Shown here in pieces: positions 54,327-62,695 of a stretch of 64,000 bases of DNA. Origin of the DNA: Candidatus Latescibacterota bacterium (GTDB lineage: Bacteria > Latescibacterota > UBA2968 > GCA-2709665). Below the pieces are notes generated by a model. It saw nothing but the letters and a program-made list of their open reading frames with translations, had not been told where the DNA came from and did not search any database. The position numbers and the translations under genes were made by a program. The DNA is taken from the NCBI GenBank assembly GCA_963662665.2, contig CAXXJS010000049.1, forward strand, positions 1-64,000. The letters are read 5' to 3'. Position 1 is the stretch's first letter, and the number at the start of each line of letters is the position of its first letter.

Positions 54327-54399
54327 AGTGTTCTGTCCCGGAAATAGATTGCCGGAATTCGGCAGATAAATGGTAACATATTTCCATCGAAGGGACACT
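54327..54399. mobile_element. Short (73 bp) copy of the 43277-43440 MITE family
   Basis: Identical first 20 bp, shared ttgcc.gaattcggc and aatggtaa..tattt, ends ggacact; lacks the central ~90 bp. Confidence 0.7.
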
Positions 54400-54417
54400 G
54401 AAGAAGGGGTGGGTTGT

Positions 54418-55449
54418 ATGTTGCTGTTACAGGAGCGGGAAGCAGCGATTCTGAATATTCTCATCGGTACGCACGTCAATACCGGGGGCCCCGTTGGATC
54501 GAGGGCAATCGCCAGGTCCGGGCTGGGTCTCAGTTCCGCCACCGTGCGCAACTCTATGGCCGACCTGGAGGAGAAGGGCCTGCTCACCCATCCGCATACG
54601 TCGGCCGGTCGCGTTCCCACGGATAAAGGATACCGCTATTACGTCGACAGAGTGATGCCCAGGCAGACTCTGGAGGAAGAGGAACGCGAGCAGATCCGCG
54701 AGCGGGTGCGGGCATACGTCCGTGAGGGCGATATCGAAGCATTGCTCGAGCAGATGTCGAGAATGATCGCCGATCTCTCGATGAATCTCGGAATGGTTCT
54801 ATCGCCGAGGTTCGAGCGGGGGGTCTTCGACCGCCTGGAAATGGTCCATCTGTCCGAGGGAAGGCTCCTGCTGGTGCTTGCAATCAAATCGGGGCTGGTG
54901 AAGACGATGGTAATGGAGGTGGACTCCGCCATTGCCCCCGGCGAACTGGATGATACGTCGCGGGCGGTAAACGAACGCCTTTCCGGTCTCAGCGTGGCGG
55001 AAATCAGAGATTCGGTTGCCGAACGGCTCCGTGAGGTCTCAAGCGGGTCTCCCAGACTCCTGCGCGTGCTGTGTGACAGCGCGCCAAGCCTCTTTCGCTT
55101 CCAAAGCGGTATGGATCTGCACTTCGGCGGGGCGGGCAATTTCATCATGCAGCCTGAATTCAACCGCAAGAAAAACGACCTGGCGGCCCTGATGGAATTG
55201 CTTGAAGCCCGGGAACCGATGATTACGATTCTGGACGAAAGAACCGAAAAAGACGGCATTTCCGTCACGATCGGCACCGAAAACGGACCGTCGCAACTCC
55301 GTGGCTGCAGCGTGCTTACTTCGAGATATCGGGTTGGCGCCATCTCGGGAGTTATCGGGCTGATCGGGCCCACTCGCATCCCGTACGCGAGGCTCATACC
55401 TCTCACCCGGTATATGGCGGCACTGGCCGAGGAAATGTTGGATCAATAG
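54418..55449 (+). CDS. hrcA: Heat-inducible transcription repressor HrcA
   Basis: PVGSR, SSATVRNSMADLEE, HPHTSAGRVPTDKGYRYYVD, IGPTRIPY. Confidence 0.95.
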   Translation: MLLLQEREAAILNILIGTHVNTGGPVGSRAIARSGLGLSSATVRNSMADLEEKGLLTHPHTSAGRVPTDKGYRYYVDRVMPRQTLEEEEREQIRERVRAYVREGDIEALLEQMSRMIADLSMNLGMVLSPRFERGVFDRLEMVHLSEGRLLLVLAIKSGLVKTMVMEVDSAIAPGELDDTSRAVNERLSGLSVAEIRDSVAERLREVSSGSPRLLRVLCDSAPSLFRFQSGMDLHFGGAGNFIMQPEFNRKKNDLAALMELLEAREPMITILDERTEKDGISVTIGTENGPSQLRGCSVLTSRYRVGAISGVIGLIGPTRIPYARLIPLTRYMAALAEEMLDQ

Positions 55450-55470
55450 CAGGAGGTTACACGGGCGCAT

Positions 55471-56064
55471 ATGGCGAAATCTAACGAAGTCAACGACGAA
55501 GAAACACAGGAGGAGACCGCCGAAGCGGAAGCTCCCGCGGAAGTGGAAACGCCGGATCCGCTGGCGGAAGCCCTCCGGGAGTCGGAAGAGCACCGGGATC
55601 GGTGGCTTCGGCTGGCAGCCGAATTCGACAACTACAAGAAACGGAGGTCGAGGGAATTCGATGCCCTGGTGCAATCGGCCAGCGAGAACCTGATACGAGA
55701 ATTGCTGCCTGTTCTCGATTCGGTCGCACGCGCGTTGGACCATCGCGCCGACGGCGAGGACGATTCAGAGGGGTACAAACAGGGCGTCGCCATGATAATG
55801 GAACAATTCCCGAAAGTCCTCGAGCGTCGAGGGCTTTCGGAGATCGAGGCCGCGGGCCGACCGTTCGACCCCAACTTTCACGAAGCGCTGATGCAGATGT
55901 CTTCAGATCAGCACGCCGAGGGGCTGGTAATGGCCGTCGTGGAACGGGGGTACCGTATGGGCGATAGAGTCATACGCCCGGCAAAGGTTGTCGTGAGCGG
56001 AGGGAGCGCGGAAGAGGAGCCCGCAAGCGAAGAAGAAGGCGAGGAAGAAAGTGAAGCGCGGTAA
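55471..56064 (+). CDS. grpE: Nucleotide exchange factor GrpE
   Basis: RLAAEFDNYKKR, LLPVLD, FDPNFHEA, GYRMGDRVIRPAKVVV. Confidence 0.96.
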   Translation: MAKSNEVNDEETQEETAEAEAPAEVETPDPLAEALRESEEHRDRWLRLAAEFDNYKKRRSREFDALVQSASENLIRELLPVLDSVARALDHRADGEDDSEGYKQGVAMIMEQFPKVLERRGLSEIEAAGRPFDPNFHEALMQMSSDQHAEGLVMAVVERGYRMGDRVIRPAKVVVSGGSAEEEPASEEEGEEESEAR

Positions 56065-56121
56065 CTCTGAGCAGGGCCGGAAATCGGCTCTGTTGTTTGT
56101 TTTGCCCGACAGGAACGGATA

Positions 56122-57279
56122 ATGTCCAAACGCGACTACTACGAGGTCCTCGGTCTGCAACGCGAAGCAACCGAAGGCGAAATTAAGAAAGCCTATCGCA
56201 AACAGGCGATGCAATATCATCCCGACCGTAACGCGGGCGATGAAGAGGCCGCGGCCAGATTCAAGGAGGCCGCCGAAGCATATGAGGTCCTGGGCGATAC
56301 CCAGAAACGTCGCGTGTACGACCAGTACGGTCATGCGGGTCTGGGCGGGCCGTTCCAGGGCGGGGGATTTCAATGGTCCGATTTCACCCATGCAACCGAT
56401 TTCGAGGACATTTTCTCCAATCTCGACGACGTGTTCGGCGGCGGTATTCTGGGCGATCTGTTCGGCCGACGCGGCGGCCGTCGCGGCCCCCAGCGTGGGG
56501 AGGACCTCCGCATTCCGCTCCGGTTGACCCTGGAAGAGATCGCGGCCGGCGCACAAAAGAAGATCCGATTTGCGCGGATGGAAAAGTGCGGCACATGCGA
56601 CGGGAGCGGCGCCCGTTCCGGCGCTGCCGCCAGGACCTGCAGCGTCTGCAACGGGATGGGGCAGGTGCGCCAGGCGACCAGGTCGATGTTCGGCCAGTTC
56701 GTGAACGTAACCACGTGCCCCCAGTGCAACGGCGAGGGCAAGGTGATCGGCGACCGCTGCTCCGACTGCGGCGGCGAGGGCAGGGCGAAAAAGACCGTAA
56801 GTCTGGCAGTCAACGTCCCGGCGGGTGTGACCGACGGCAACTACATCCCGTTGCGGGGGCAGGGCAGCGTTGGACCCCGTGATGGCGCCGCCGGGGATTG
56901 CATGGTGCTGATCGAAGAGGAGGAGCACGAGTACTTCGAGCGGCACGGCAACGACATTCTCTATGAATTGCCCATCAGCTTCAGCCAGGCGGCGCTGGGC
57001 GCCGACGTGACGGTTCCCACGTTGAACAGCAAGGCGGAAATGAAGATTCCGGCCGGAACGCAGTCCGGACAGGTTTTTCGCCTGCGGGGCAAGGGTATAC
57101 CGGAACTGAACGGGTACCGTACCGGCGACCAGCTCGTTCGCGTGATGGTCTGGACGCCAGCCCGTCTCAACGAGGATGAGAAGACGCTGTTCAGGCAACT
57201 CGCCGAACTGGAGAATATCCAGCCACCGGAAGGTGGAAAAGGCTTATTCGAACGTATGAAAGAGGCGTTCGGCGGTTAG
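56122..57279 (+). CDS. dnaJ: Chaperone DnaJ
   Basis: DYYEVLG, HPD, four CxxCxGxG zinc-finger repeats. Confidence 0.97.
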   Translation: MSKRDYYEVLGLQREATEGEIKKAYRKQAMQYHPDRNAGDEEAAARFKEAAEAYEVLGDTQKRRVYDQYGHAGLGGPFQGGGFQWSDFTHATDFEDIFSNLDDVFGGGILGDLFGRRGGRRGPQRGEDLRIPLRLTLEEIAAGAQKKIRFARMEKCGTCDGSGARSGAAARTCSVCNGMGQVRQATRSMFGQFVNVTTCPQCNGEGKVIGDRCSDCGGEGRAKKTVSLAVNVPAGVTDGNYIPLRGQGSVGPRDGAAGDCMVLIEEEEHEYFERHGNDILYELPISFSQAALGADVTVPTLNSKAEMKIPAGTQSGQVFRLRGKGIPELNGYRTGDQLVRVMVWTPARLNEDEKTLFRQLAELENIQPPEGGKGLFERMKEAFGG

Positions 57280-57317
57280 CGAATAGTACCCGTGTGTCTC
57301 CTTTACGCAATACGGGC

Positions 57318-57348
57318 GTCCCGTGCATCCGCACGGGGCTTTTTTTTT
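57318..57348 (+). terminator. Intrinsic terminator after dnaJ
   Basis: gtcccgtgc-atcc-gcacggggc followed by a long T tract. Confidence 0.85.
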
Positions 57349-57376
57349 GGGGGGCCGATCGTCGCCGGACTGCGCG

Positions 57377-58819
57377 TTACGTTTTCCTCAGCCTGCGGAA
57401 AAGCGGTTGACTCTTCCTGATCTCCGATTTCGAAAAACTGGTTTCGATATGATCGGCGGTACACGGAAGAAAGGGTCTCAGGACCCGCGAAATGGCGCGA
57501 ATCGAACCGACCCAGGCCGAGAGATTTTTCCGGAGCTTCCCGGCCTTTCCCTGTTTCAGAAATTCCCACGGACGTTCCGCGTCGATTTCGCGGTTCAGAC
57601 CGCCAACGCGCCGCCAGATGGCCCTCAGGCCGCCGGCAAAGTCGAATTCGTCTAGCGCGTGCGTGACGTCCTGTGGAACGCGGGCATCGGGCGTTTCCGC
57701 CCGACCGTAACCGCACCCTTCGCATAGGGCTTCGAGCCGGCGCACCAGGTTGCCCAGACCGTTCGCAAGGTCCGAGTTGTACACTTCCCGCAGCCTGGCT
57801 TCGGACACATCGCCGTCCTCTCCCGAACGGACTGCGCGGAGCAGGTAGTACCGGAGGGCGTCAGCGCCGTATCGCCGGATCAGGGGGAATGGGTCCACGG
57901 CGTTGTCCAGCGACTTTCCGATCTTGCGGCCTTCCACGGTCAGATGGCCGTGGACGAAGATGGTTCGGGGAAGCGGCAGGCCGGCGGAGAGCAGCAGGGC
58001 GGGCCAGTAAACCGCGTGAAACTTGAGGATATCTTTGCCGATCACGTGGACCCGGTTGGGGCAGTTGCGCCAAAACCGATCGAATTTTTCGACCCCCGAA
58101 CCATAGCCCAGACCGGTGAGGTAGTTGGTCAGGGCGTCGAACCAGACGTACATGACCTGCGTCGGGTGTCCAGGCACGGGCACGCCCCAGCCTCCGGAAC
58201 GCTCCCGATTGCGGGAAATGCTGAAGTCACGCAGGCCCTGCCTGATGAATCCCAGCGCTTCGTTTCGGCGTGTTTCCGGGAGAATGCGAAGCTCTCCGGA
58301 CGCGATCAGGCCCTCGAGCGCCTTCTGATAGGCGGATAGGCGGAAGAAATAGTTGGTTTCTTCCACGGACTCGGGTTCGACGGCGTGAACAGGGCATCGA
58401 CCGTCCGAAAGGTCCCGCTTCAGGTAGAAGTCCTCGCATCCCGCGCAATACAGACCGCGGTACTGCCGGAGGTAGATATCCTCCTGCCGGCAGTCGGTCC
58501 AGAATCCGGATGCGCCGCGGAAGTGGACGTTGGAGGAGGAGCGGATGAAAGCGTCGGAAGAGACGTTGAGGGCTTCGACCAGGTTTCGGAAGACCGCGGC
58601 ATTCCGATCGCAGAACTGATCGGGCGCAAGGCCCTGACGGGCGGCGGCCTGCACGTTTTTGAACGCATTTTCGTCGGTTCCGGTGAGGAAAAACGTCTCG
58701 TCGCCCAGGAGCCGCCGCCACCGTGCAATCGCGTCGGCCTGTACGAGTTCCAGCGCGAAACCCACGTGGGGGCGGGCATTGACGTAGGGGATGGACGTAG
58801 ATACGTAGAACGTATTCAT
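57377..58819 (-). CDS. metG: Methionyl-tRNA synthetase, short atypical form (HVGF/KIGKS, Met-depleted)
   Basis: FYVSTSIPYVN, FFLTGTDE, YCxxCE..CPVH knuckle, NYFFRLS, YVWFDAL, IGKDILKFHAVYWPA, LANGLGNL, NREIDAERPW. Confidence 0.9.
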   Translation of the reverse strand: MNTFYVSTSIPYVNARPHVGFALELVQADAIARWRRLLGDETFFLTGTDENAFKNVQAAARQGLAPDQFCDRNAAVFRNLVEALNVSSDAFIRSSSNVHFRGASGFWTDCRQEDIYLRQYRGLYCAGCEDFYLKRDLSDGRCPVHAVEPESVEETNYFFRLSAYQKALEGLIASGELRILPETRRNEALGFIRQGLRDFSISRNRERSGGWGVPVPGHPTQVMYVWFDALTNYLTGLGYGSGVEKFDRFWRNCPNRVHVIGKDILKFHAVYWPALLLSAGLPLPRTIFVHGHLTVEGRKIGKSLDNAVDPFPLIRRYGADALRYYLLRAVRSGEDGDVSEARLREVYNSDLANGLGNLVRRLEALCEGCGYGRAETPDARVPQDVTHALDEFDFAGGLRAIWRRVGGLNREIDAERPWEFLKQGKAGKLRKNLSAWVGSIRAISRVLRPFLPCTADHIETSFSKSEIRKSQPLFRRLRKT

Positions 58820-58836
58820 CAGGAGGCCCTTTCCAT

Positions 58837-58874
58837 AAAAAAAACCCCACCGCCGATCCGTCGGCGGTGGGGTT
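58837..58874 (-). terminator. Attenuator-type intrinsic terminator in the metG leader
   Basis: Perfect 14-bp stem aaccccaccgccga/tcggcggtggggtt, 4-nt loop, U8 tract ending 17 nt before metG ATG. Confidence 0.88.
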
Positions 58875-58902
58875 GTCGATTCAGGTACACGTACGATTCA
58901 GT

Positions 58903-59061
58903 TCATTTCATGGGATGGTCCGCCGCGGGATGTCCGAATGAGATAGAGGACATCATGCACATCGAAATCACGGCGACACGGGTCGATGCATTGCCATGTG
59001 GAACGGCTGAGGATTGTACTGATAAACGCGAAACGTAGACCGAAATCTGAACCGATTTCAT
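58903..59061 (-). CDS. Putative metG leader peptide (52 aa, M-C-M-M cluster)
   Basis: GGGGAGAG RBS before ATG 59061; ATG TGC ATG ATG at 58962-58951; stop about 28 nt before the terminator stem. Confidence 0.6.
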   Translation of the reverse strand: MKSVQISVYVSRLSVQSSAVPHGNASTRVAVISMCMMSSISFGHPAADHPMK

Positions 59062-59088
59062 CTTACTCTCCCCAATTGTGTGGGCGTA

Positions 59089-59117
59089 AAGATAGACGGC
59101 CAGCCATGAATTGTCAA
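59089..59117 (-). promoter_or_regulatory. Sigma70 promoter for leader peptide and metG
   Basis: Minus strand TTGACA, 17 bp, TATCTT. Confidence 0.6.
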
Positions 59118-59170
59118 GTTTCACGTGCGGACGTACCGCATTTCAGGTATCGCACCGTGCAATTCGCGCA

Positions 59171-59307
59171 GGGATGATCCCATGCTGCAGTAGATCCTTC
59201 GTCGGCCTGGCGGCCTCCTCAGGATGACAGTTTTACCGACACCTTACAGACAGACTTCGCCACCGGTTACCGCAACGCATGTCATTCTGAGCGCAGCGAA
59301 GAATCTC
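59171..59307. repeat. REPIN-like inverted doublet, copy 2
   Basis: Homologous to 13359-13524 but lacking the 28-bp insert. Confidence 0.8.
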
Positions 59308-59462
59308 ACGTACATCGTGAATCTGATATCTTCCCCTTGTCCTTTTGGCGGTATGGGCTTAAATTGACGAAGGCAGGAGAATCCGGGGTGGGCCTGCCGG
59401 TCACCCGGTTTCCGGGCGGTATTCTACTTTCGTGAATATTATTATAGAGTAAGGGATCGGTT

Positions 59463-60512
59463 GTGCTTTACTGGTTGGGAGAGCGTTTCTCGGACGTTTA
59501 CGGGCCCCTTCGGCTGTTAACGTCCTATCTGTTTCTGGCCGTTCTGGGCACGGCGCTGGCCGGTTTATTCACCTGGCGGCTGCTTCCCGGATTGTGGATG
59601 CGGCTGCCCAAAGACCGTGGCCGCGCGTATGCCGTCGATAACGAGCAGAGCCACGGCAAGCCCGTGGGTGCCGGCGTTATTTTCATCCCCATCTACCTGA
59701 TCGTGTGTTTTCTGATCCTCCCGCCGGGTTCCCAGTACTGGCAGATTCTGGGCTGTCTGTTTCTCGCGATGCTGGCCGGGTTCCTTGACGATCGAAGTCC
59801 TGGCGGATGGGGCGAGTACCGCGTGGGAGCCATCGACCTGGGCATTTCCCTGCTGGGCGCAATGGTTATTTGCCAGTTGGAGTCCGTCGAGCTCTGGCTT
59901 CCGCTGATGAAGACGCCGGTACTGGTCCAACCGTGGATTTTCGTGCCCGGGGCCGCGTTATTGATCTGGGTTTCAATCAATGCCACCAACTGTACGGATG
60001 GCGTGGACGGGCTGTCGGGCAGCCTGAGTGTGCTCGCCTTCATCTATCTGGGCGTCATTCTATACGGGATTGTAGGGCACACGGACATTGCCCGGTATCT
60101 TCTTGTGCCGCACTATCCGGACGGCGCGGTCTGGGCCCTGTTCGCATTTGTCATGGCCGGGTGTCTGGCCGGTTATCTCTGGTATAACGCCTATCCCAGC
60201 GCAGTGCTGATGGGAGACGCGGGATCCCGGCCGATGGGCTTCCTGCTCGGGATACTGGTTCTGGCGTGCGGCAATCCGTTTCTGATCGTCGTGGTCGCAA
60301 GCGTGGTGCTGGTGAATGGGGCCACGGGACTGCTGAAAGTGGCGTTGCTGCGGTTTCTGAAGATCGGGATATTCGAGACGGTTCGATATCCGCTGCACGA
60401 TCATTTTCGGCACAAAAACGGATGGTCGAATACGCACGTACTCGTGCGGTTTATTCTGCTCCAGGCGTTTGTGACGCCGATTCTGCTGGTTTTGCTGGTT
60501 AAGATCCGCTGA
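59463..60512 (+). CDS. mraY: Phospho-N-acetylmuramoyl-pentapeptide transferase (MraY family)
   Basis: MLYWL start, GFLDD, NATNCTDGVDGL, LWYNAYPSAVLMGDAGS, PLHDHF. Confidence 0.88.
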   Translation: MLYWLGERFSDVYGPLRLLTSYLFLAVLGTALAGLFTWRLLPGLWMRLPKDRGRAYAVDNEQSHGKPVGAGVIFIPIYLIVCFLILPPGSQYWQILGCLFLAMLAGFLDDRSPGGWGEYRVGAIDLGISLLGAMVICQLESVELWLPLMKTPVLVQPWIFVPGAALLIWVSINATNCTDGVDGLSGSLSVLAFIYLGVILYGIVGHTDIARYLLVPHYPDGAVWALFAFVMAGCLAGYLWYNAYPSAVLMGDAGSRPMGFLLGILVLACGNPFLIVVVASVVLVNGATGLLKVALLRFLKIGIFETVRYPLHDHFRHKNGWSNTHVLVRFILLQAFVTPILLVLLVKIR

Positions 60513-60552
60513 GGGTGCAGGCGCGCGGCGAGATTACGCACAAAGGGAAACC

Positions 60553-61911
60553 ATGGACGCAAAAGAAACGCTAAAGCGGAAAATCTGTGAGGCCATCGAC
60601 CGCCGGCGCGGACAGATCGAGCGGATCGGGGACCACATTATGGCCCATCCGGAGACTGGGTTCAAGGAATTCGAAACGTCCAGGCTGGCGGCGAATACCA
60701 TGGAAGAGTTCGGGATTTCGCCGGAAACCGGGCTGGGGATTACCGGCGTGAAGGGCATTTTACGGGGTGCGAAACCGGGCCCGACCGTGGCCCTGATCGG
60801 CGAGCTGGATTCGCTTGTAGTGCCGGATCATCCCATGGCCGATCCCGAAACCGGCGCCGCACACGCCTGTGGACACAACGCGCAGATGGCCGGGCTGCTG
60901 GGCGCGATGATGGGGATGGTGGACACCGGCGCGGCTGAGTCCATGGCCGGCAACGTCGTGTTTTTCGCGGTGCCCGCGGAAGAGTATATCGAGGTCGAGT
61001 ACCGGATGGGACTGGTCAGGGAAGGAAAGCTGGAGTTCCTGGGCGGCAAACCCGAACTCGTCCGCCTCGGGCATTTCGACGATATCGACGTGGCGGCCAT
61101 GATCCACACGCACAGCGACCCTGGCATGAAGAAGGCGGCGACTGCCAAGTCGTGCAACGGATGTATGGTGAAGATGATCCGGTTCGTTGGCCGTGCCGCG
61201 CACGCCGGAGGCGCGCCTCACAGGGGAATCAACGCGTTGAACGCCGCCCAGATCGCATTAATGGCAATTCATGCGCAGCGTGAGACGTTTCGGGATAACG
61301 ATTCGATCCGGGTACATCCGATCATCACCAGGGGCGGCGACATCGTGAATGTGGTGCCGGCGGAGGTAACGATGGAGACCTACGTCCGGGGGAAGACGAA
61401 CGAAGCGATGCTGGACGCCAACGAGAAGGTCGACCGGGCGATCCGCGCGGGGGCCATGGCGGTCGGCGCTCGGGTGGAGATCGAGACGCTGCCGGGGTAC
61501 ATGCCCGTCAGGACCGATCCTGCGTTGAGCGAAGTGTTCGAATCGAATTCGAGAGCACTATTCGGCGACGACGAGGTCTGTGAGGTCTCGCACCGGTCGG
61601 GATCCACGGATATGGGGGATCTGTCCCACATCATGCCGGCGATCCATCCGTACATGTCCGGAGCGGACGGCGTGGGTCACAGCGCGGACTGGCATATTTC
61701 GGACAAGGAGATGGGGTATATCGCGCCCGCGAAATCACTGGCGCTTCTGGCCGTGGACCTTCTGCACGGCGCCGGCGAGGAGGCGACGGGCGTGCTCCGG
61801 GACTTCGAGCCGGCGATGACGAAGGAAGAGTACCTGACGTTCCAGCGTGCGCTGTTCAAGACGGAGGTATTCGACGGGGCAGGCGGCGGGAAAGACGGGA
61901 ATACGAACTGA
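60553..61911 (+). CDS. M20 family amidohydrolase (ACY1L2/AbgB-like)
   Basis: HPETGFKE, GELDSL, HACGHN, PAEE, GRAAHAG, GSTDMGD. Confidence 0.9.
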   Translation: MDAKETLKRKICEAIDRRRGQIERIGDHIMAHPETGFKEFETSRLAANTMEEFGISPETGLGITGVKGILRGAKPGPTVALIGELDSLVVPDHPMADPETGAAHACGHNAQMAGLLGAMMGMVDTGAAESMAGNVVFFAVPAEEYIEVEYRMGLVREGKLEFLGGKPELVRLGHFDDIDVAAMIHTHSDPGMKKAATAKSCNGCMVKMIRFVGRAAHAGGAPHRGINALNAAQIALMAIHAQRETFRDNDSIRVHPIITRGGDIVNVVPAEVTMETYVRGKTNEAMLDANEKVDRAIRAGAMAVGARVEIETLPGYMPVRTDPALSEVFESNSRALFGDDEVCEVSHRSGSTDMGDLSHIMPAIHPYMSGADGVGHSADWHISDKEMGYIAPAKSLALLAVDLLHGAGEEATGVLRDFEPAMTKEEYLTFQRALFKTEVFDGAGGGKDGNTN

Positions 61912-61924
61912 TCCTTACGTCTGC

Positions 61925-62695
61925 TTAAATCACATTGATCTCGCGCGTTCCGGCGTTCCCGATGCGTTTCGGGCCGTCTCTTTCCAGCACCGCCGGTTCC
62001 TCCACCAGCCAGGATCCCTCCAGAGAAAGAACGTTCCCTTCCTCGAAAACGATCCCGGGCGCCACGCGTTCGTGGCCCGACGGGTAGGCGGAACTCATTC
62101 TGGGTTCCTCGTGAACGTCCATTCCCACCCCGTGTACCAACCATAGTGGCGCGTCTGTTTTTTCAGCTTCGAACTCACGGCGGCAGGCCTCGAAGACTTC
62201 CCGTTTGGTCTTGCCGGGGCGCACTACGTCATACATAAACGCGATGCGGCGGACATGGGCGTTTACGGTTCCAACTGCTTTCGGTGTGGGTTCCCCGAAA
62301 CAGAGTGGCAGTTTGAAGTCGCTCATGTAACCCTGGTAGCAAATGTTCCAATCAGGAGATAATCCCGCGTCCAGGCCGATCCGACCTCGATGAAGGTCCC
62401 GTTTCTTTAACTGATCGATTGTCACGGCAAGATAATCCTTCACGTAGTCGTCGGTCCCGTAGGTCTCTGACGGCATGTCCGGCAGGTTGAGGCCGCGGGC
62501 GCCCACGGTGAAAGATCTGTCGGGCGGCGCGATGACGCAGAACATCAGTATCCATCCATCGTTGGTATTGTTGTACATCGCATCCCGGAAGAGGAGGTCG
62601 CTGCGCAGGTAAAGGGTGTTCTTTCGTCCTGCGAGGATAAGGGCATCCAGCCCGCTTTCGGCGATGAGGGCTTTCAACCTCGGAATATTGGCCAC
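61925..62695 (-). CDS. M24 (Xaa-Pro peptidase/creatinase-like) protein, apparently internally deleted; possible pseudogene
   Basis: GLDALIL..N..YL, GRIGLD, YQGYMSD, HGVGMDVHEEP, LSLE; only 256 aa. Confidence 0.65.
   Translation of the reverse strand: MANIPRLKALIAESGLDALILAGRKNTLYLRSDLLFRDAMYNNTNDGWILMFCVIAPPDRSFTVGARGLNLPDMPSETYGTDDYVKDYLAVTIDQLKKRDLHRGRIGLDAGLSPDWNICYQGYMSDFKLPLCFGEPTPKAVGTVNAHVRRIAFMYDVVRPGKTKREVFEACRREFEAEKTDAPLWLVHGVGMDVHEEPRMSSAYPSGHERVAPGIVFEEGNVLSLEGSWLVEEPAVLERDGPKRIGNAGTREINVI

Follow-up and report, generated by a model that had tools for sequence, protein, structure and literature searches.

The window analyzed here is a 64,000-nucleotide (nt) stretch of a Candidatus Latescibacterota genome (contig CAXXJS010000049.1, positions 1 to 64,000). 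On its minus strand lies metG2 (58819-57377), which encodes a short paralog of methionyl-tRNA synthetase (MetRS) of 480 amino acids (aa) that matches TIGR00398 (394.1 bits, cut-off 336.35) and PF09334 (E 2e-93), and which is preceded by a leader containing a promoter, a short open reading frame (ORF) with clustered Met codons and an intrinsic terminator. This leader is probably a ribosome-mediated transcription attenuator that senses the charging of Met-tRNA through Met codons 34-37 of the leader ORF and controls a second MetRS that is itself nearly free of Met.

All parts of the leader are read on the minus strand. It opens with a sigma-70-like promoter (59117-59089), in which TTGACA (59117-59112) and TATCTT (59094-59089) are separated by a 17-nt spacer and agree with the consensus at 10 of 12 positions; two promoter-like sites of such quality occur within 57000-61000, against a mean of 1.5 in shuffled sequence. 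A Shine-Dalgarno (SD) sequence, GGGGAGAG (59073-59066), ends 4 nt before the ATG of a leader ORF of 52 codons plus a TGA (59061-58903, the stop at 58905-58903), whose peptide, MKSVQISVYVSRLSVQSSAVPHGNASTRVAVISMCMMSSISFGHPAADHPMK (MKSVQ...ISMCMMSS...HPMK), has no match in Pfam or NCBIfam. The candidate regulatory codons form the cluster ATG-TGC-ATG-ATG (Met34, Cys35, Met36, Met37; 58962-58951), and a fourth downstream Met codon, codon 51 (58911-58909), stands just before the stop. Region 1, UCGCCGUG (58976-58969), lies 7-14 nt upstream of Met34 and pairs with region 2, CCGCGGCGG (58928-58920), which encodes Pro-Ala-Ala, mimics the 3' arm of the terminator and would serve as the 5' strand of the antiterminator. 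Inside the 1:2 structure is a small hairpin, GAUGUCC-N12-GGACAUC (58954-58929), with Met37 in its 5' arm. The intrinsic terminator (58874-58837) comprises a 5' arm (58874-58861), a CGGA loop (58860-58857), a 3' arm (58856-58843) and eight T residues ending at 58837; its stem (58874-58843) has 14 pairs, 10 of them G-C, around the 4-nt loop, and an energy of -27.9 kcal/mol. The metG2 ATG at 58819 is found 17 nt past the last T, a distance too short for a promoter, so that every metG2 transcript must read through the terminator.

The earlier note on this DNA, made from the sequence alone, had described the promoter, the ribosome-binding site, the 52-codon ORF, its Met codons, the terminator, the 17-nt spacing and a complementarity between CGGCGG (58925-58920) in the leader ORF and CCGCCG (58867-58862) in the terminator 5' arm, and each of these was found where it had been placed. 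The absence of T-box and SAM-I elements, also claimed there, was upheld by an Rfam scan of 56000-62000 on both strands with E values up to 10, which returned no T-box and no match to the S-adenosylmethionine (SAM) riboswitch families. Rfam matches overlapping the leader were confined to sub-threshold terminator look-alikes, NsiR1 (29.1 bits, gathering score 39) and MIR807. No tRNA or tmRNA gene was found in the window.

By its catalytic core and its HIGH- and KMSKS-type motifs, the metG2 product can be assigned to the class I methionyl-tRNA synthetases. HVGF stands for HIGH and KIGKS for KMSKS; since HxGF was found in 34 of the 80 related MetRS genes examined, Patescibacteria included, the variant motif is no sign of an inactive enzyme. 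The protein contains two Met residues in 480 aa, at positions 1 and 223. The housekeeping MetRS of the same genome (MetRS1), encoded on another contig (C21), has 634 aa, 16 Met residues (2.5%) and KMGKS, and is 41% identical to the metG2 product; the genome-wide Met frequency, a crude figure from long ORFs, is 1.85% (assembly of 66 contigs, 4.86 Mb, 92% complete). Among 40 relatives examined, the short type (MetRS2) is present in 13 of the 14 other genomes of the genus, and every genome also carries a housekeeping type. Across the phylum, a match to the short MetRS was detected at E <= 1e-120 in 24 of 168 genomes, this one included; by family such matches occur in 16 of 21 genomes in f1, 1 of 31 in f2, 3 of 3 in f3, 3 of 76 in f4 and none in ten others. 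Of these matches, L121 (686 aa, 10 Met) resembles an ordinary MetRS. The depletion of Met from the enzyme, already pointed out in the earlier note, holds in all 16 orthologs counted, which have 1-4 Met in 477-480 aa and KI(G/S)KS replacing KMSKS. At L021 (G011), residues 1-136 and residues 136-478 of the MetRS2 match fall in different frames, as might result from a frameshift, a pseudogene or an assembly error.

Within the genus, the leader takes a common form, here termed type A, represented by 14 loci (L001, L007-L018 and L021), that in the window among them; promoter, SD, 52-codon frame, terminator and spacing are common to all 14. TTGACA is invariant, the -10 hexamer is TAT(C/A)TT throughout, and a purine-rich SD box (GGAG, GGGAG or GGGG) occupies the same position at every locus. 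In an alignment covering the 3' two-thirds of the leader, both ATGs of the ATG-NNN-ATG motif are likewise invariant in 14 of 14, with TGC, TAC, CGC or CGA as the middle codon; the third ATG (M-x-M-M) is retained in 13, L008 having CCG, and Met51 is replaced by Leu in five. Enrichment of Met codons in homologous leaders had been set beforehand as a test of the attenuator, and M-x-M was found in 14 of 14 loci of the genus and Met clusters in six loci of other families. The frame itself has been kept open: in the 14 x 51 leader codons, frame 0 contains a single stop, the early stop of L015, where a 1-nt deletion shifts the end of the leader two codons upstream, as compared with 35 and 10 stops in the other frames. 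Mean pairwise differences over codons 2-32 are 0.35, 0.36 and 0.39 at codon positions 1, 2 and 3, respectively, and this near-equal variability together with the open frame indicates that what has been conserved is translation of the leader and not the sequence of its peptide. Although unpaired in the RNA model, Met34 and Met36 never vary, and the GCGGCG of region 2 is the same at all 14 loci.

The alternative pairings of the leader RNA are present and conserved, though not proven by covariation. The minimum free energy and centroid folds of 58990-58835 alike contain region 1 paired with region 2 (CGCGGCGG, 58927-58920), the enclosed GAUGUCC/GGACAUC hairpin and the terminator. Across the 14 loci, 88% of cells were paired for region 1 with region 2, 84.5% for the small hairpin (58954-58929), in which changes were one-sided only, and 97.9% for the terminator; the three structures together reached 92.1%, against 32-49% in slid controls, and the antiterminator reached 94.4%, against 13-78%. 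The clearest two-sided change lies in the terminator, where the window has C-G at alignment columns 122/149 and the other 13 loci have A-U. When transcripts are cut at the terminator loop, region 2 (58928-58920) pairs with CCGCCG-A-CGG (58867-58858) over 9 bp with one bulge. In the window this duplex has an energy of -18.6 kcal/mol, the shuffle mean being -10.5, and 0.3% of shuffles reach -18.6. In a wider duplex test, the segment of each upstream ORF (uORF) after the Met cluster was compared with the terminator 5' arm and loop in 15 leaders, using 300 mononucleotide shuffles; no more than 5% of shuffles reached the observed energy in nine of the 15, four of them related type A loci. Region 1 falls inside the -15 nt footprint of a ribosome stalled in silico at Met34, and in this model its pairing with region 2 and its cover by the stalled ribosome would complete the classical 1:2 / 2:3 / 3:4 layout. 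A CAU hairpin loop considered as a mimic of the tRNA-Met anticodon, serving autoregulation, was rejected, the loop sequence not being conserved in orthologs.

The diverged leaders of other families provide the strongest evidence for an attenuator. They share only the design, namely a Met cluster, a segment mimicking the terminator 3' arm and a terminator, and are otherwise different in sequence. The leaders of L022 (whose MetRS is 59% identical), L117, L116 and L118 read ...SSMGMPMSMRD..., ...NGMGMSMRD..., ...RSMGMHTH... and ...PPMAMPRMTSRD... (PMAMPRM), respectively; each has its own SD and, after the Met cluster, a mimic of its own terminator 3' arm (GGCAGUGG, UCGGCGGUGG or GACAGUGG), and the terminators differ in sequence from that of type A. 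About 400 nt upstream of MetRS2, L119 and L120 both have a tandem pair of uORF-terminator units, whose leader peptides are rich in His and Met (MHHHHMMW..., ...HAMPRAWSTSGGMSRMR; HMHHHHVM), and in unit 2 of L119 a 13-nt uORF segment is exactly complementary to the 5' flank of the terminator. The MetRS2 frames of L119 and L120 contain one internal stop codon each. Altogether, a Met-containing uORF followed by a terminator was found at 20 of the 22 analyzable MetRS2 loci in the phylum; L023 (G037), whose gene start was not located, is outside these 22.

The other two loci, L019 and L020, have no terminator-like hairpin within 800 nt upstream of metG2 and carry only a second kind of element, type B, which is absent from the window. 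It is a uORF placed about 60-125 nt upstream of metG2, directly before the gene, in seven loci (L007, L008, L019, L020, L021, L116 and L117), five of which (L007, L008, L021, L116 and L117) also have the terminator type, so that all 22 analyzable loci carry at least one of the two elements. The type B uORF has an SD, encodes a peptide of the form ...S(H)SxGG(I/V/L)xx-M-(R/C)-x-S..., and, having no stop before metG2, overlaps the first 68-956 nt of the gene in a different frame. The Met codon of this uORF and the next ~20 nt pair with the metG2 SD and AUG (CAUG/CAUG, GCAUGUCC/GGACAUGC, CUUC/GAAAG), forming a duplex of -16.7 to -27.6 kcal/mol that none of 300 shuffles reached in six of the seven loci and 2% reached in the seventh. 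Four loci have T, V or L in place of the second Met of the M-R-M motif, and at L117 a U-to-C change has its counterpart in the SD region, where A is changed to G. By analogy, the type B uORF looks like a translational attenuator. In ermC and cat, translational attenuation depends on a ribosome stalled by an antibiotic; as in those systems, a ribosome stalled in the type B leader ORF would melt the helix hiding the downstream SD and start codon, but the stall would come from hunger for Met codons, not from an antibiotic, and the leader ORF overlaps metG2 out of frame instead of stopping before it. In the window, a five-codon mini-ORF (ATG GAA AGG GCC TCC TGA, 58836-58819, minus strand) begins in the T-run of the terminator and its stop overlaps the metG2 start (TGATG); not every type A locus conserves it, and its first residues, MER..., are similar to the end of the type B uORF in relatives (...MERTC...).

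Applied under the same blind criteria to 14 housekeeping MetRS loci (L002, L024-L035 and L121), the search for a Met-cluster uORF followed by a terminator returned none. Hairpins upstream of housekeeping metG in family f2 were rejected as attenuators, as they sit in the 3' end of the upstream coding gene. The window's own genome (4.86 Mb) was also scanned for ORFs of up to 100 codons with at least three in-frame ATGs within seven codons, followed by a hairpin and T-run. This gave 28 matches; among the 27 checked, 23 fall within open frames of 150 aa or more and four are intergenic, and of these four only the metG2 leader has a strong terminator (-27.9 kcal/mol, as compared with -11.0 to -13.2). 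The metG2 leader is thus the only convincing Met-cluster leader in its genome; the most promising of the other matches, C40:423288-423365, was discarded because a long open frame on the opposite strand contains it. A crude scan of the same genome for leaders specific to other amino acids gave 51 matches, and neither of the two examined was confirmed: a 'Trp' candidate (C50:62662-62688) overlaps an apparent tRNA gene, and a 'Cys' candidate (C2:9945-9983) has no downstream gene on its strand.

The survey was extended to 80 loci of MetRS relatives, 78 of which had enough upstream sequence, six from Latescibacterota and 72 from other groups. The blind scan recovered five of the six Latescibacterota loci, missing L043, whose T-run is only 3 nt, and found a Met-cluster uORF with a terminator at four of the 72 others: L058 from Anaerolineae (SMSMVMRMRGIPR), L065 from Ktedonobacterales (VMLMPMRGLPR), L092 from Chloroflexota (RGMMRPPRLP) and L088 from an isolate of the alphaproteobacterium Pelagibius (NMMMPVTM). 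The MetRS proteins of these four have 2-3 internal Met residues and K(I/V/F)SKS. Among MetRS genes outside the phylum, the layout occurs in 4 of 12 with three or fewer internal Met and in 0 of 60 with four or more, counts drawn from loci that are not phylogenetically independent. By eye, similar uORFs were seen at L086 (an Actinorhabdospora isolate; MRTAFTRMMRP) and L061 (a Rhizobium isolate; ...CAMMPLYNM...), followed by hairpins without a long T-run, and in the outside-phylum leaders the Met cluster is repeatedly followed by a motif M-(M/R)-(R/P)-x-x-P-R. What the computations show directly is the leader with its conserved parts and open frame, its alternative pairings and its confinement to the Met-poor paralog; from these results we infer ribosome stalling, the switch itself and its physiological trigger.

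In the mechanism we propose, transcription would start near 59082 and ribosomes would translate the leader ORF behind the advancing RNA polymerase. With Met-tRNA(Met) in good supply, the ribosome would pass codons 34-37 and region 2 and reach the stop codon; region 2 would then be occluded or paired back with region 1 (58976-58969), the 14-bp terminator would form and the transcript would end 17 nt short of the metG2 AUG. When Met-tRNA is scarce, the ribosome would stall with AUG 34, 36 or 37 in its A site and cover region 1 together with the first (5') half of the small hairpin. Thereby freed, region 2 would pair with the apical half of the terminator 5' arm and the loop (58867-58858), so that the terminator could not nucleate and polymerase would read through into metG2, whose product would need only an initiator Met and one internal Met.

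Several results weigh against this mechanism. With each of the ribosome masks applied, equilibrium folds of the complete leader contain the terminator, and the antiterminator (9 bp with a bulge, -18.6 kcal/mol) competes with a terminator of about -26 to -28 kcal/mol. Since equilibrium folding is therefore unable to show a switch, nascent transcripts were folded instead under ribosome masks, the measure being the number of terminator 5'-arm nucleotides captured by region 2. At least 5 nt were captured in 14, 13 and 13 of 14 loci with a ribosome on Met34, Met36 and Met37, respectively, but the same held for 13 of 14 loci with no ribosome at all, and with a ribosome at the stop codon 4-8 nt were still captured in 14 of 14. 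A Met stall is thus not required in silico for the antiterminator to form, and the OFF state hinges on a well-timed passage of the ribosome over region 2; with a ribosome on codon 47, within that region, capture fell to 0-1 nt in nine of 14 loci. These folds suggest a switch that would be ON by default when the leader is not translated. Further points concern the RNA itself. The fold of the 156-nt leader is barely better than those of shuffles (z -1.6), and two-sided pair changes are no commoner than in shuffled alignments, which did as well in 136 of 500 cases for the 1:2 structure, hairpin and terminator and in 153 of 500 for the antiterminator. The duplex test was not significant in six of the 15 leaders, although the hairpin or Met cluster had been mis-set by the parser in three of these six, as well as in one leader that passed (L065). 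The loci are related, and counts across them therefore overstate independence. The His-richness of the L119 and L120 leaders is unexplained by a Met attenuator, and in codons 33-43 codon position 2 varies less (0.146) than positions 1 (0.287) and 3 (0.21), so that the peptide around the Met cluster may matter. The antiterminator put forward in the earlier note stands as a pairing, CGGCGG/CCGCCG having grown to 9 bp with a bulge, while the strict need for a stall at the Met codons does not follow from the folds. Its reading of the leader as a Met-codon attenuator is supported by the conserved Met-rich leaders and the absence of T-box and SAM elements, two points on which it could have been refuted, and by the Met-depleted enzyme; against it stand weak covariation and folds that do not strictly need a stall.

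The low position-2 variability would suit a different view of the leader, in which the same RNA switch is driven not by codon hunger but by an arrest peptide around ISMCMMSS that, like TnaC, stalls the ribosome on a small molecule (free methionine, SAM) or another signal. The residues flanking the Met cluster are conserved in the genus, with codons 33-43 least variable at position 2, and post-cluster motifs such as MRGIPR, MRGLPR, MMRPPR and MPR recur in distant leaders. These flanks coincide with RNA helices (the 58954-58929 hairpin and region 2), which explains their conservation without recourse to the peptide, and the recurring motifs may merely translate GC-rich antiterminator segments. 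As the N-terminal 32 codons bear no sign of amino-acid-level constraint and the leaders of other families have in common only the Met cluster and the RNA design, we regard an arrest peptide as quite improbable. It is also unlikely that the terminator is governed by an undescribed riboswitch or an RNA-binding protein, possibly MetRS acting on its own leader as ThrRS does, with the uORF and its Met codons arising as by-products of ATG within CATG palindromes. Such a reading would account for the recurrence of ATGTCC/GGACAT pairings, in the type A hairpin and in the type B helix sequestering the SD and AUG, and for the position of Met37 in a helix arm. It sits poorly with the invariance of Met34 and Met36, which are unpaired in the model, with the conservation, at all 14 loci, of an SD and start codon ahead of the only open frame, frame 0, and with in-frame Met clusters even in leaders of unrelated sequence; no Rfam family matches the leader, and the z of -1.6 gives no indication of a conserved complex aptamer-like fold.

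A complete promoter, SD, ORF and strong terminator could also describe an independent small gene or small RNA, with metG2 expressed only through constitutive, unregulated leak-through, and the terminator does always form at equilibrium. Yet the unit is always found directly upstream of metG2 and never of MetRS1 (0 of 14); its sequence changes across families while the layout stays; its peptide is not conserved in the way that a protein would be; and seven loci have a further Met-codon uORF that pairs with the SD and AUG of metG2. A strong terminator 17 nt before an otherwise promoterless gene of essential type would make no sense without controlled read-through, and we consider this last explanation highly improbable. 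Attenuation through the Met codons of the leader remains the account that we favor. More tentatively, and with rather less confidence than we have in the attenuator itself, the locus may be viewed as one case of a widespread and undescribed Met-starvation module in which a MetRS purged of Met, even in KMSKS, is placed under Met-codon leaders at two levels, transcription termination (20 of 22 phylum loci) and translation initiation (seven loci, five with both). The switch in such a module might be ON by default unless a ribosome completes the leader, and would report a shortage of both initiator and elongator Met-tRNA; the layout may have arisen or spread in Latescibacterota, Chloroflexota, an alphaproteobacterium and possibly Actinomycetota.

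The surroundings of metG2 are as follows. Divergent from it on the plus strand is a glycosyltransferase family 4 / MraY-like gene (59463-60512) that scores 112.9 bits against an MraY equivalog cut-off of 192, and which from this score is probably a paralog of MraY with another substrate; a further neighbor encodes an M20 amidohydrolase (60553-61911). On the other side, an hrcA-grpE-dnaJ heat-shock cluster (54370-57279, plus strand) converges on the 3' end of metG2 at 57377. This cluster closes with a strong terminator of its own (57318-57339).

Leader-peptide attenuation is textbook knowledge for Trp, His, Leu, Thr, Ile/Val and Phe, whereas regulation by methionine has been attributed to T-boxes, SAM riboswitches and repressors. 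Among the closest known systems is pheM-pheST of E. coli, where a leader peptide with Phe codons controls PheRS. As there, a synthetase gene lies behind a short ORF enriched in cognate codons and an intrinsic terminator, and the proposed logic is that low charged tRNA would lead to a stall and the stall to read-through. Unlike pheM, the metG2 leader would use Met and has 52 codons as opposed to the classical 14-32, and the gene that it precedes is a Met-depleted second paralog in the phylum Latescibacterota, not the housekeeping enzyme. With trpL, hisL, leuL, thrL, ilvL and pheL it would share mutually exclusive 1:2, 2:3 and 3:4 pairings, as predicted from its sequence, and regulatory codons in or beside region 1; in all of them a terminator immediately precedes the first structural gene. 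It differs from them in having only three clustered regulatory codons, in the position of region 2, which lies 15-23 nt upstream of the leader stop where the classical region 2 is downstream, and in the lack of a clear 'superattenuation' state, since the folds predict that the antiterminator would form without a ribosome.

In Firmicutes, metS/metG and back-up synthetase paralogs have T-box leaders, and Met genes are also controlled by SAM riboswitches. The metG2 leader would resemble these in being induced at low Met or low charged tRNA-Met through terminator/antiterminator switching, but it has no specifier loop, T-box sequence or SAM aptamer, and the sensor would be the translating ribosome. 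Leaders with cognate codons before synthetase genes have also been predicted elsewhere by comparative genomics: the relevant passages describe classical attenuators ahead of the Streptomyces trpS and leuS genes (PMC1262725) and, in bacilli, hisS paralogs and hisZ with a His leader (PMC2965389), the latter also resembling metG2 in that the leader serves duplicated paralogs. These passages concern other taxa and include neither a Met case nor a link to depletion of the cognate amino acid (PMC1262725; PMC2965389); for the methionine operons of Actinobacteria, the corresponding passage reports no conserved RNA regulatory structure upstream (PMC1262725), and ermC is mentioned in that on bacilli (PMC2965389). 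Full-text literature searches, in which subscription journals were not covered, returned no published Met-codon attenuator.

If the interpretation is true, a Met-codon attenuator would add the missing amino acid to the list and widen the reach of the mechanism to a phylum that is uncultured. Met is a special case: its synthetase charges the initiator tRNA as well, so that translation of the sensor itself would depend on the signal being measured. A leader of this kind coupled to a synthetase needing almost no Met would represent a clear and testable proteome-level adaptation to starvation for a single amino acid, and the occurrence of transcriptional and translational versions at orthologous loci, together with tandem double attenuators, offers a good system for studying how such switches evolve. 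Annotation pipelines leave leaders of this type unmarked or label them as hypothetical small proteins. Leader-peptide attenuation itself is known; set against the systems described above, what is new in the metG2 leader is its apparent specificity for Met, its phylum, its tie to an isoenzyme nearly free of the cognate amino acid and the pairing of transcriptional with translational versions.

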